Of a stretch of 35,191 nt of DNA, positions 32,292 through 35,191 are shown piece by piece; position 1 is the stretch's first letter; each line of letters starts with the position of its first letter. A program made the translations under genes and the position numbers. The stretch is from a virus. Its lineage: Duplodnaviria > Heunggongvirae > Uroviricota > Caudoviricetes. The notes beneath the pieces are model-generated. The model had not been told where the DNA came from, made no database searches, and saw nothing but the letters and a program-made list of their open reading frames with translations. The stretch is taken from the IMG/VR virus record IMGVR_UViG_2713896779_000022, one strand, 5' to 3'.

Positions 32292-32495
32292 TTAGCTGTT
32301 AGCCAAAGCGTCTTTTAACATCGCCACAAGGTTTACTTCAGGCTTTTCCATTTTGGCGCGTTTGGGGCGGATAATAATTCGACCGTCAGCCAACATCTTT
32401 TTGCATGTATTAAGAGGGATACCTGTTATCTCTGCATATTTCTGCAGGGATACATAGGGGGCATTCACATTGATATTGATGGTTATACCTGACAT
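32292..32495 (-). CDS. Cox/Apl-like small HTH regulator (putative excision/switch protein)
   Basis: 67 aa; segment YVSLQKYAEITGIPLNTCKKMLADGRIII matches the pattern of P2 Cox (YQEFAKLIGKSTGAVRRMIDKGKLPVI); second gene of the early operon. Confidence 0.55.
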   Translation of the reverse strand: MSGITININVNAPYVSLQKYAEITGIPLNTCKKMLADGRIIIRPKRAKMEKPEVNLVAMLKDALANS

Positions 32496-32511: not shown

Positions 32512-32718
32512 TCAGGAAGATTTGTTTTGTTCTTTCTGGGTTAGCTCTAGGCCGCGAAGGAAGATCATGCGCGCCATGTTAGAGGATGAGCGTTGTTCTT
32601 TAGCTGCCATTTCATCAATGACGGCTCGCTCCTCGAGGGACAGCCGAAGTGCCAGTCTTGGACCTGTGGCGGTGTTACGCGGAATGCGTGATCTGGTATC
32701 GTGAAGAACTTGTTTCAT
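32512..32718 (-). CDS. ribbon-helix-helix (CopG/Arc-type) DNA-binding protein; first gene of the early operon
   Basis: 68 aa; RHH signature LSLEERAVIDEMAAKEQRSSSNMARMIFLRGL; divergent from repressor C. Confidence 0.65.
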   Translation of the reverse strand: MKQVLHDTRSRIPRNTATGPRLALRLSLEERAVIDEMAAKEQRSSSNMARMIFLRGLELTQKEQNKSS

Positions 32719-32793
32719 AGTGGTATATTGTGATCATCTAATAGCTCGTGAAATCATTTTGGTATCAAAAAAGATACCTGTCAAGGTTTTTGT
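32719..32793. promoter_or_regulatory. immunity switch region (early/repressor promoters and operators)
   Basis: 75-bp gap between divergent RHH gene and C; direct repeats TGGTAT at 32721 and 32760; palindrome GGTATC-aaaaaa-GATACC at 32761-32778. Confidence 0.5.
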
Positions 32794-33198
32794 ATGAAAA
32801 ATGATATTGGTCAGCGGTTGCGTGAGGAAAGGGAAAGATTGGGACTTAGTCAAGTTGCCATGAGCGACATTGGTGGAGTCAAAAAGCTAACTCAGCTTAG
32901 ATATGAGAAAGGAGATAGCTTTCCTGATGCTGCGTATTTGGCAGCGCTGTCTCGTTTTGGCCTTGATGTTCAGTATGTTGTGTTGGGAATTCACTCACCT
33001 GAAACTTATAACGATGATGAGCAGGAGTTGATTACTCGCTTTCGAGCAGCTTCGTTAGATGTGAAAAACGCGGTGATTGGGGCTTTAAAAGGTGCGATCA
33101 GTGAAAAGGAAACTCAGCCATCAGGACGTGAGTTAAATATTTCTGGTGGTAATAACCGTATCGCTGGTCGTGACTATAACGAAACTAAGGGTAGGTGA
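32794..33198 (+). CDS. C: immunity repressor C (HTH_XRE family)
   Basis: N-terminal XRE-type HTH (IGQRLREERERLGLSQVAMSDIGGVKKLTQLRYEKG); position divergent from the early operon and upstream of int, as for P2 C. Confidence 0.8.
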   Translation: MKNDIGQRLREERERLGLSQVAMSDIGGVKKLTQLRYEKGDSFPDAAYLAALSRFGLDVQYVVLGIHSPETYNDDEQELITRFRAASLDVKNAVIGALKGAISEKETQPSGRELNISGGNNRIAGRDYNETKGR

Positions 33199-33213
33199 TA
33201 GTAGGGAGGTGAC

Positions 33214-33537
33214 ATGGCCGTCAACTCAAACGGTTCAAACAATCGCGTTGCTGGGCGTGATTTTCACGAAAAGAATATTCAGATAGAGCGATATGATGGT
33301 TCTCATACCGTCAATATCGCAATCCCTTCGAATAATGATGATGACGATCGCCCTTTGCTTAAGGCTCAGCGTAAGGAGCTAAATAGCTTGGTTGCTGCTA
33401 TTGCAGAAGCTAGCAATACTGAAGCGTTTATTATTTGGCAAAAAGTACATGCGGAGATTGGTGTAGCTGGTATTGATGATATGATAGTAAATCAATATAA
33501 AACAGCGGAGAGTTTTCTGCATGCAATGCTTGAGTGA
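33214..33537 (+). CDS. hypothetical lysogenic-operon protein sharing an N-terminal motif with the repressor tail
   Basis: 107-aa ORF with strong RBS GGGAGG; N-terminus SNGSNNRVAGRDFHEK repeats the repressor C-terminus SGGNNRIAGRDYNET; ends at TGA 33535-33537. Confidence 0.6.
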   Translation: MAVNSNGSNNRVAGRDFHEKNIQIERYDGSHTVNIAIPSNNDDDDRPLLKAQRKELNSLVAAIAEASNTEAFIIWQKVHAEIGVAGIDDMIVNQYKTAESFLHAMLE

Positions 33538-33864
33538 TGTAAAGATCATGATGCCTGTAAGGCTCTTGTAAGTTTATTACTACGTAACAGTGAAGACTGT
33601 GGACTTCGACAAAAACTTCTGCGGTATTGCCATATCAATTTCGGTACAGGACGTTTAAACGATCTTACTCGTTCTCAGTTACAGTCTGCATTGTCGTGGT
33701 TAGAGCAACAATCGGCATCAAGCCACACAGAGAGTTCGACCTTACCAGAAGTCCGACTTCGTGCTTCAGAATTAATCCGACTTTATCCAAAAGAAATAAT
33801 ATTCTTTATCTGCGTAGGGGTTTTGGTAGGCGGTGTCATTTCTAGGGCGTTTTTTAATTTGTAA
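33538..33864 (+). other. in-frame continuation of the preceding ORF beyond a single TGA, encoding a C-terminal transmembrane segment
   Basis: 108 sense codons in the same frame as 33214-33537, no ATG, ending ...LYPKEIIFFICVGVLVGGVISRAFFNL*; either the broken 3' half of one gene or readthrough extension. Confidence 0.35.
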
Positions 33865-33893: not shown

Positions 33894-34241
33894 ATGAAAG
33901 TAAAAAATGTTCAACTATTAGTTACTTTTTTATCTATGTTTTCTTTTTCCGCCGTCGCAATGCCTTTTAAAACTATTGAACGTGAGAGTTTTAATGGGGT
34001 ATGGCCATTTAATACTGATGAGGTTCAATTACAGTGTCTTGATGGTAATCCTTATGTGATGAATTTTGACGATAATAAGTTATATGCACTTACAGGTTTG
34101 GCTCGAATAAAAGGTAAAACATTTGGTGCGTTACCGTTAGATAACAATAATCCATTTTGGCTAGATAATGATGCCGCCCCAGGGTTAAAAAAGAGTCTGG
34201 GGGATGTCACTAAGGCTGCATTTGATTTATGTGATAAGTAA
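33894..34241 (+). CDS. small secreted/periplasmic protein of unknown function (cargo gene)
   Basis: 115 aa with Sec-type signal peptide (MKVKNVQLLVTFLSMFSFSAVA) and two Cys; AT-rich; between C and int. Confidence 0.65.
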   Translation: MKVKNVQLLVTFLSMFSFSAVAMPFKTIERESFNGVWPFNTDEVQLQCLDGNPYVMNFDDNKLYALTGLARIKGKTFGALPLDNNNPFWLDNDAAPGLKKSLGDVTKAAFDLCDK

Positions 34242-34246
34242 CTAAA

Positions 34247-34358
34247 ATGTCGGTTCGTAAGATTCCATCAGGTAAATGGCTTTGCGAATGTTATCCCTAC
34301 GGGGCATCGGGAAAACGCATTCGTAAACAGTTTGCGACAAAAAGTGAGGCGCTTGAGG
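34247..34358 (+). pseudogene. int: P2-type tyrosine integrase, N-terminal ~37 codons only; truncated by IS insertion
   Basis: MSVRKIPSGKWLCECYPYGASGKRIRKQFATKSEALE resembles the P2 Int N-terminus (...GRNGKRIRRKFDKKSEAVAFEKY); frame runs into IS end TGTACTGG at 34359 and stops at TAG 34370-34372. Confidence 0.7.
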
Positions 34359-35191
34359 TGTACTGGCAATAGCGGACACTACCATTTGTTCTTTTTTTAA
34401 GCAGCCATCTGATGATATTTTTCCCTGAAGGCTGCCGGGGAGATATTCCCCAGACGAGAGTGACGACGCTGACGATTGTAGAAAATCTCAATGTATTCCC
34501 GTATTACTGAGATGGCTTCATCCCGGTTATTAAAACGATAGTGGCTCAGGCTCTCATTTTTCAGCGTTCCCCAGAAGCTTTCCATCGGAGCGTTGTCGTA
34601 ACAGTTACCTTTACGCGACATTGATGTTTTCAGACCAAACTGCTCCTGTATGACCCGGTAATCGTATGCGCAGTACTGTGAACCTCGATCAGAGTGGTGG
34701 ATTAGCCCGGCAGGTGGGCGCTGGCTCCTGAGCGCCATAAACAGAGCTTTACCTGTCAGCTCTTTTGTCATGCGCTCTCCCATGGCGTAGCCGACAATTT
34801 CGCACGTATAAACATCTTTGATGCCAGCGAGGTACAACCATCCCTCCTGTGTGGCAACATACGTCAGGTCCGCCACCCAGACCTGATTTGGTGCTGTAGG
34901 AGCGAACGTCTGGTTCAGCAGATTTGGCGCAACTGGCAGATTGTGGTTCGAGTTCGTAGTCGCTCTGAACTTGCGTTTCTGCTTACAGCGTAGCCTTAGC
35001 TCCTTACGAAGACGTGCCAGTCGGTCACGACCAACGATGATGCCATTCTCTGCCAGCTCCGTCTGGAGCCGCCGGGTTCCATATGTTTCGCGAGTGCGGA
35101 TATGTGCCACCTTAATCTCCAGTTTTAGCCGCTCATCACTTTGTTTTCTGTCTGAGGGTTCATGCTGTACCCAGTTGTAATAACCGCTCCT
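34359..35191 (-). mobile_element. IS3-family insertion sequence (distinct from the left-edge IS), inserted in int; continues beyond window
   Basis: Terminus begins TGTACTG at 34359 (IS3/IS150-type end); OrfB-like transposase on the minus strand stays open to the window edge. Confidence 0.8.
34397..35191 (-). CDS. IS3-family transposase OrfB (partial, N-terminal part and OrfA outside window)
   Basis: DDE-domain blocks (VWVADLTYV, HHSDRGSQY, CYDNAPMESFWGTLK); frame remains open upstream of the track start to position 35191. Confidence 0.85.
   Translation of the reverse strand, partial: RSGYYNWVQHEPSDRKQSDERLKLEIKVAHIRTRETYGTRRLQTELAENGIIVGRDRLARLRKELRLRCKQKRKFRATTNSNHNLPVAPNLLNQTFAPTAPNQVWVADLTYVATQEGWLYLAGIKDVYTCEIVGYAMGERMTKELTGKALFMALRSQRPPAGLIHHSDRGSQYCAYDYRVIQEQFGLKTSMSRKGNCYDNAPMESFWGTLKNESLSHYRFNNRDEAISVIREYIEIFYNRQRRHSRLGNISPAAFREKYHQMAA

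Follow-up and report, generated by a model that had tools for sequence, protein, structure and literature searches.

The immunity region of a P2-like prophage

The stretch of DNA analysed here (the window) is the 35,191-nucleotide IMG/VR virus record IMGVR_UViG_2713896779_000022, which belongs to the Caudoviricetes. Its segment from 32.3 to 34.4 kb is the immunity region of a P2-like (Peduoviridae, Xuanwuvirus-type) prophage, and the subject of this report is a pair of adjacent genes within it, encoding the immunity repressor and a membrane protein (the partner), whose products carry the same short peptide motif at their facing ends. The segment forms the immunity and integration end of the prophage, at a site beside yecA/tyrP of E. 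coli; the same sequence is present in O121 strains, and the closest phage record is Escherichia phage 520873 (Peduoviridae, Xuanwuvirus). The rightward gene order is Cox-like (minus strand), Arc-like (minus), repressor (plus), partner (plus), DUF2511 (plus), the start of int, and a transposase. As is typical of P2-like repressors, the helix-turn-helix (HTH) gene is divergent from the cox-type early operon and int lies on the repressor's side.

The repressor gene (32794–33198, plus strand) is an open reading frame (ORF) of 134 codons whose product matches Pfam HTH_31/HTH_3 and, in profile searches of the PDB, P22 C2 and other phage repressors. The AlphaFold2 model contains an XRE-type HTH domain (residues 5–64), two helices (residues 74–104) and a low-confidence tail (residues 105–134) with a predicted local distance difference test (pLDDT) score below 50, which suggests that the tail is probably flexible. 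The tail bears the motif LNISGGNNRIAGRDYNE at residues 114–130 (33133–33183, plus strand), delimited by alignment and a shuffle test, followed by a basic end, TKGR. The repressor itself stays intact in the window. Five motif-bearing repressors scanned from this and other loci match HTH families only and contain no S24 self-cleavage domain of the LexA/CI type.

The partner gene and its nonsense codon

The stop codon of the repressor is followed by a spacer of 15 nt (33199–33213, plus strand), one fewer than the first-pass annotation of this DNA had counted, which holds two further in-frame stops (making three in all, TGA TAG TAG) and a Shine-Dalgarno sequence, GGGAGG (33204–33209). The partner gene (33214–33864, plus strand) is apparently co-transcribed with the repressor and encodes, in intact alleles (WP_000290355 and WP_000290345), a tail-anchored Flk_N-domain membrane protein of 216 residues that belongs to phrog_5825 (E=7e-103). 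In EDL933 the intact pair consists of WP_000786773 (repressor) and WP_000290345 (partner). The motif copy of the partner, VNSNGSNNRVAGRDFHE, occupies residues 3–19 (33220–33270, plus strand). In the AlphaFold2 model, built with a 23-sequence alignment, residues 1–40 have low confidence (pLDDT about 45, below 50) and the N-terminus is probably flexible, whereas the helical Flk_N domain is confident (about residues 45–172, pLDDT 84–94; 33346–33729, plus strand). A C-terminal transmembrane (TM) anchor follows as a helix at about residues 192–215 (33787–33858, plus strand), and the hydropathy profile of an intact orthologue places the segment at residues 187–205.

The Flk_N (PF27202) assignment comes from precomputed annotations. 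Like Flk, which regulates flagellar export in Salmonella and E. coli, the partner combines an Flk_N domain and a cytoplasmic body with a C-terminal membrane anchor. However, the match to NCBIfam NF007987 is partial (partner residues 35–166 against Flk residues 18–149, E=8e-16), scoring 58.3 bits against an equivalog cut-off of 353, and the protein has 216 residues against about 330–430 for Flk. The presumed chromosomal Flk, so judged by its length and sequence (MQP..., two domain copies), carries no N-terminal motif. By these measures the partner is related to Flk but falls outside its equivalog family. Local Pfam scans of the partner return sub-threshold noise only (zf-P11, ELYS), and a search of PDB sequences with the partner profile yields nothing useful (E=0.61).

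In the window, codon 108 of the partner gene is an in-frame TGA (33535–33537, plus strand), which is CGA (Arg) in the translations of intact alleles; PGAP annotates a pseudogene on account of the internal stop, and the gene is either that or cut to 107 codons. The anchor lies downstream of the nonsense codon and is therefore not made here. Among 505 E. coli genomes in which the region occurs, only 10 contain the exact 66-mer around the TGA, namely O121 strains and probably the O103 strain ML775, which has an internal stop there too; the frequencies thus indicate that the intact gene is the norm and that the break is recent and lineage-specific. The module is probably inactive in the window, because the truncated partner lacks the anchor and half of the domain.

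The repressor tail and the partner N-terminus share a motif

The best local alignment between the two whole proteins pairs LNISGGNNRIAGRDYNE of the repressor with VNSNGSNNRVAGRDFHE of the partner. Ten of 17 residues are identical, and the BLOSUM62 score of 62 was attained by none of 20,000 shuffles of the N-terminus (mean 20.6, sd 4.5, maximum 46), which bears out the first-pass claim that the two proteins share a motif. At the nucleotide level, 30 of 45 bases are identical in the core (33145–33189 against 33232–33276), and five of the nine identical core residues are encoded by different synonymous codons. Most nucleotide differences thus keep the peptide, as had been claimed; because identical residues often use different codons, the comparison points to selection on the motif peptide in both copies and not to recent duplication. 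Because the synonymous sites look randomised, to speak of a diverged duplication is a historical inference only. Both copies lie on low-confidence ends that face each other over the gene boundary, and flexible termini adjoining confident globular parts would fit a segment that folds only upon binding. A six-frame scan of the 35-kb window detects no third copy.

Three other origins of the match were considered and rejected. Readthrough or fusion of the two genes is ruled out by the three consecutive in-frame stops, by the variation of spacer length and frame among related loci and by the lack of fused proteins among the homologues, recent duplication or gene conversion by codon usage, and a common low-complexity peptide by the six-frame scan together with an exact-pattern scan of viral contigs (see below).

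The motif pair is conserved and co-varies between lineages

All 120 closest relatives of the partner begin with the motif. In 13 P2-like loci from nine genera (E. coli, Rosenbergiella, Mixta, Izhakiella, Enterobacter, Erwinia, Kosakonia, Symbiopectobacterium and Serratia), the HTH protein encoded upstream invariably has the ending ...GxGNR[IV]AGRD[FY]xENKK and the next protein begins MxVNSxGxxNRxAGRDF, so that the pair is present in every related P2-like locus examined. The tail is kept even where the HTH domains have clearly diverged. The spacer is mostly −4 to 34 nt and longer in a few loci, a variation which indicates that readthrough or fusion is not conserved. Across 120 repressor homologues the plan is conserved: an HTH domain, a helix of the type ExELxxxFRxAPLAVKAAALAALTAG, a variable N/Q/G-rich tail and a basic end.

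In Pectobacterium, Gilliamella and Pseudomonas, Mu-like transposable prophages have repressor homologues with other tails, and here too a membrane-protein gene comes next. The N-terminus of its product matches the tail of its own lineage; the pairs (tail / N-terminus) include QIFNGDISGQFAGNQIIN / QEFNGTAQGQFSSRDIIN, GQIAGGNIY / EQIAGRDIY and QQFNGPVGTVTSGDVVN / QQFHDRVHQVAAGDIKN. Scans of viral contigs add further pairs, such as QVFHGAVSGGVAARDIINN / QEFQGNVDGGVAGRDIVNQ and KQTFHGSVGQSVAGNVTNKSGVTFNVGD / SQDFHGDVGQAAAGDINNYGVSISLVD, and a scan of genome contigs returned 10 loci. The pair is therefore general to P2-like and Mu-like prophages of many Proteobacteria. Two Gilliamella phage types (loci L019 and L020) carry different matched motifs, and several matched variants exist side by side in enterobacteria.

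For a test of co-variation, the pairs were clustered to 21 non-redundant representatives and the pairing labels were permuted 100,000 times. Cognate tails and N-termini score 44.3 on average, against 26.6 for non-cognate combinations, and no permutation attained the observed mean. A clear match (score of at least 33) is found in 17 of the 21 representatives, and a further locus (L065) is weaker but similar by eye. The two copies evolve in concert, since independent drift from a common ancestor would not favour cognate over non-cognate combinations; this agrees with the earlier proposal that the repressor and its neighbour share an interaction segment. The members of a pair use the same codon at 44% of the positions with identical residues, where pooled codon usage predicts 37%, and gene conversion or recent duplication is thus an unlikely cause of the match. 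The codon comparisons, in the window as well as across pairs, likewise uphold the claim that both copies are selected as peptides.

The motif is a portable module in a constant context

An exact degenerate DNA pattern for NR[IVM]AGRD[FY] found 108 stretches in 2.9 million viral contigs, and the placement of the motif was read from 68 distinct proteins of the 80 loci listed. Nearly all of the 68 carry it either within the last 25 residues of an HTH repressor or, in the other bearers, within about 12 residues of the likely protein start; apparently only two are unrelated chance matches. Most N-terminal bearers whose upstream sequence was checked directly follow a repressor with a matching tail. 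The motif is thus almost confined to repressor tails and protein N-termini, and the concern that it might be a common low-complexity sequence of unrelated proteins does not hold.

The flanking proteins vary widely around this constant arrangement. Motif-bearing repressors comprise the HTH_3/XRE family, including a 215-residue HTH_3 protein, and a second HTH family with a weak, sub-threshold Phage_CI_repr-like Pfam match. The partners fall into at least five unrelated families, almost all membrane-anchored, and a hydrophobic TM segment is present in nearly all of them. They include the Flk_N tail-anchored proteins; longer proteins in which an Flk_N-like start is followed by a coiled coil, a TM helix and a presumably periplasmic C-terminal domain with Cys and Trp; zinc-ribbon proteins with a TM segment; and small two-TM proteins. 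The motif is a portable module, and its composition is distinctive: N (4.5-fold), G (2.3-fold) and V (1.6-fold) are enriched and L (0.1-fold), K (0.45-fold) and P (0.49-fold) are depleted, with Q and I (both 1.1-fold) not enriched.

Two groups of loci show additional features. The partners of L082, L086, L089 and L091 (269–341 residues) begin with the motif and have a first helix pair like that of Flk_N; a long coiled-coil-like stretch leads to a single TM helix, beyond which lies a conserved and presumably periplasmic C-terminal domain (C...W...basic end). Pfam gives no match for L086, the sole member of the class scanned; the layout suggests a trans-membrane sensor. The repressor tails of L099, L101, L229 and L240 contain two pseudo-repeats (MKIEGxxNxQ ... 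MEIKGDNNVQ), and their partners contain one (MKITGNGNTQ or MTIQGNNNTQ).

A possible link between the repressor and the membrane

Most P2-like and Mu-like repressors are not known to be cleaved in the SOS response, and the signal that induces these prophages is a long-standing gap. A matched, co-evolving, terminal and flexible motif pair suggests that the two copies bind each other and thereby tie the repressor to a membrane-anchored partner, a reading to which we assign a probability of about one half. The intact partner would be a cytoplasm-facing inner-membrane protein composed of a flexible N-terminus, the Flk_N helical domain and a C-terminal TM helix. The repressor tail and the partner N-terminus would each offer one copy of the N/G/V-rich motif of 17–20 residues, and the copies would pair directly, probably as a short intermolecular beta structure, which would recruit the repressor to the membrane. 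The amount or the assembly state of active repressor would then follow the state of the membrane protein, on which immunity and induction would depend; this could provide an induction route for repressors that show no LexA-type (S24) self-cleavage domain. We infer the physical pairing as well as its direction and consequence, namely that the partner governs the free amount or the assembly of the repressor and not the reverse.

Several points weigh against this reading. Three of the 21 representative loci (L116, L156 and L091) show no convincing match, and a third, phage-specific partner that binds both copies would likewise be expected to produce co-variation. Because it is apparently expressed along with the repressor, the membrane protein does not qualify as a classical lytic-phase antirepressor, and its gene, a pseudogene in this lineage, is dispensable for prophage maintenance.

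The repressors of L116 and L156 have a typical N/G-rich tail followed by an unmatched ORF, which encodes a secreted or lipoprotein-like protein in L116 and an Flk_N protein with a different motif in L156. These two loci may represent loss or exchange of the partner.

Comparison with known motif pairs and regulators

The closest counterparts are the amyloid signalling pairs, such as fungal HET-S/NWD2, bacterial BASS1–10 and E. coli Bab/Agp (BASS11), in which the products of adjacent genes have a motif of about 20 (20–25) residues in common, one copy being C-terminal and the other N-terminal. In BASS motifs, Q, N, G, V and I are over-represented, K, P and L are scarce, and hydrophobic residues alternate. 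The present pair resembles them in the C-terminal/N-terminal placement in adjacent genes, seen in the window and at many other loci, in the location of the motif on flexible terminal extensions beside globular domains (pLDDT below 50), in motifs that vary by family and match within a pair, and in composition (N, G and V up; L, K and P down), although Q and I are not enriched. The 2:1 pseudo-repeats of L099 and L229 (MKIEG..NxQ ... MEIKGDNNVQ against MKITGNGNTQ) recall those of HET-s and BASS1/6, and Bab/Agp, which acts in an E. coli prophage defence island, is likewise located in an E. coli prophage. In contrast, there is no NLR/STAND sensor or Bell/HeLo death domain here (the effector types considered being Bell, HeLo, TIR, CHAT and similar); the motif sits at the C-terminus of a DNA-binding repressor and at the N-terminus of a membrane-anchored Flk_N protein, and it is shorter (about 17–20 residues), its enterobacterial version being rich in the charged residues R, D and E. 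By analogy drawn from sequence and models, the motif pair may work like an amyloid signalling pair and would be a putative member of the class.

A stronger form of this analogy would make the motif a true amyloid-type signal and the pair a prion-like, self-propagating, RecA-independent lysogeny switch of P2-like and Mu-like phages across Proteobacteria. An envelope or infection cue would cluster the membrane-anchored partner, whose N-terminal motifs would form a beta-arch template and convert repressor tails to the same fold, so that the repressor would leave its operators or be locked on them. We regard this version as doubtful.

The first-pass annotation had likened the pair to SinR/SinI. 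In B. subtilis, SinR is an XRE-type HTH repressor, and the product of the neighbouring gene, SinI, has a homologous interaction segment; this segment is helical and serves multimerisation, and SinI, a small soluble antagonist, is regulated separately. The likeness stands for the logic only: a repressor and its neighbour have a common interaction segment, and a heteromer is conceivable. It fails in structure. The segment here is an N/G-rich terminal stretch that has low confidence in both models and appears as coil in that of the repressor, and Pfam scans of these proteins detect no SinI-type helical domain. Nor is the neighbour a small soluble antagonist; it is a tail-anchored Flk_N membrane protein, apparently co-transcribed with the repressor rather than expressed against it, and broken in the window.

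Membrane-held transcription factors are known from anti-sigma/sigma pairs and from Mlc-PtsG, and Qtip of vibriophage VP882 is reportedly an aggregating antirepressor. As proposed here, a membrane-anchored or aggregating partner sets the free amount of a DNA-binding regulator in these systems. However, they rely on contacts between folded domains and are not known to have a matched terminal motif or a co-transcribed repressor/partner cassette built in this way. The lambda cI-rexA-rexB operon again unites an immunity repressor and a membrane-protein gene in one transcript of the lysogen, and repression does not need the latter, but the Rex proteins are not known to share a motif with cI or to be homologous to the proteins described here. 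We found no description of a repressor/membrane-protein motif pair in the literature, of which our coverage is incomplete, and its novelty is provisional: matched-motif gene pairs are known in kind, and phage immunity would provisionally be a new setting for them.

Alternative explanations

The direction of control could be reversed, with the membrane protein acting as an effector and the repressor as its keeper or trigger, in a unit resembling a toxin-antitoxin or abortive-infection system. The repressor tail would cap, or alternatively template, the N-terminal motif of the partner, and titration, degradation or re-assembly of the repressor would lead the partner to form oligomers in the membrane that arrest or kill the cell. 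The gene order (an HTH protein gene, then a small membrane protein gene in one apparent operon) and the diversity of the partners, nearly all of them membrane proteins, are in keeping with this possibility; in E. coli, Bab/Agp sets a precedent for the control of a membrane-targeting death effector through a motif common to neighbouring prophage genes, and loss-of-function alleles of the partner are tolerated, as they would be for a toxin. However, PADLOC gives no match for the partner, Flk_N is not a known pore or toxin fold, and amyloid pairs have the effector motif C-terminal and the sensor motif N-terminal, which puts the membrane protein here in the sensor-side position. The nonsense allele is moreover rare, at 10 of 505 genomes, so there is no sign of strong counter-selection. 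We consider the effector explanation unlikely.

The two copies might instead share a reader, for example a protease or adaptor (the motif being a degron of the ClpXP, Lon or FtsH type), a chaperone, or an antirepressor of the phage. The repressor and the membrane protein would then undergo degradation or titration side by side. Short, terminal and flexible motifs are typical of degrons, and both copies lie in low-confidence termini. The repressor tails end in a basic cluster (NENKK, NKKNK, RRRKTK), which we take to resemble basic C-terminal ClpX signals, and the prophage also encodes a 'derepression protein'. A host protease signal, however, should not differ within one host as it does between the two Gilliamella phage types, and several matched variants coexist in enterobacteria. 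The window contains no third motif copy or obvious motif reader, and the composition is that of beta-arch-forming signalling motifs. We consider a common reader rather improbable.

The derepression protein (WP_000013472, so named by PGAP) is encoded at positions 1–150 of the minus strand of L001, a locus of the same prophage type. It is a possible antirepressor and, as such, a candidate third party for the repressor tail.

A functionless relic of gene fission or tandem duplication, or a linker conserved for modular recombination between phages, is strongly disfavoured. The two genes do lie in one frame here, 15 nt apart, and phage immunity regions are mosaic. However, the peptide has been kept through the randomisation of synonymous sites, the two motif copies co-vary from lineage to lineage, neither the length nor the frame of the spacer is conserved, no fused HTH-Flk_N protein appears among 120 repressor homologues (77–227 residues) or 258 listed Flk_N relatives, and a nucleotide-level recombination linker would keep DNA and not peptide.

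Implications of a possibly membrane-tied repressor

P2-like and Mu-like prophages are common in enterobacteria and pseudomonads, and a portable, co-evolving peptide pair is a concrete candidate for the missing input to their induction. If the motif copies do tie the repressor to its membrane partner, the pair would represent a new way of wiring a transcription factor to the envelope. If the pairing is of the amyloid kind, it would carry amyloid signalling beyond cell-death immunity (NLR/Bell, Bab/Agp) to a viral genetic switch, and beyond filamentous bacteria to ordinary Proteobacteria. The match between a C-terminal tail and an N-terminus in adjacent genes offers a search handle for such modules, and the lineage-specific motif variants are possible orthogonal interaction tags. 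For annotation, a 'hypothetical' or 'membrane protein' beside these repressors belongs to the immunity module.

Flanking genes of the immunity region

Leftward of the repressor, the Arc-like ribbon-helix-helix gene (32512–32718, minus strand; phrog_3431, E=1e-28) is the first gene of the divergent early (lytic) operon and is named 'Arc-like repressor' in phage 520873; the Cox-like excisionase/repressor gene follows (32292–32495, minus strand; phrog_575, E=1e-27). PGAP/RefSeq places a hypothetical ORF of 45 residues (WP_001673482) at 32568–32705 on the plus strand, a call that is probably wrong because the overlapping 68-residue ORF on the minus strand matches PHROG 3431 and is annotated in phage 520873. 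Within the 75 bp that separate the repressor gene from the divergent Arc-like gene lie a perfect inverted repeat, GGTATC-AAAAAA-GATACC, at 32761–32778 and an additional GGTATA half-site at 32722–32727, which together are candidate operators.

Rightward of the partner, the DUF2511 gene (33894–34241, plus strand; Pfam DUF2511; phrog_2950, E=2e-39) is by its position the third gene of the presumed lysogenic operon, before int. Its product has a signal-like hydrophobic segment at the N-terminus. The same slot holds a gene for a WYL-domain protein in L005 and a hypothetical gene of 258 nt (85 residues) in L004; this place between the membrane partner and int has the look of a moron site with variable content. 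Only the first 41 codons of the prophage integrase are present (34247–34372; intact orthologues have 333 residues), and they are followed by a transposase ORF on the strand opposite to the integrase (34397–35110, minus strand) with rve, rve_2, rve_3 and HTH_21 domains. The break in the integrase looks like an IS3-family insertion that disabled excision.

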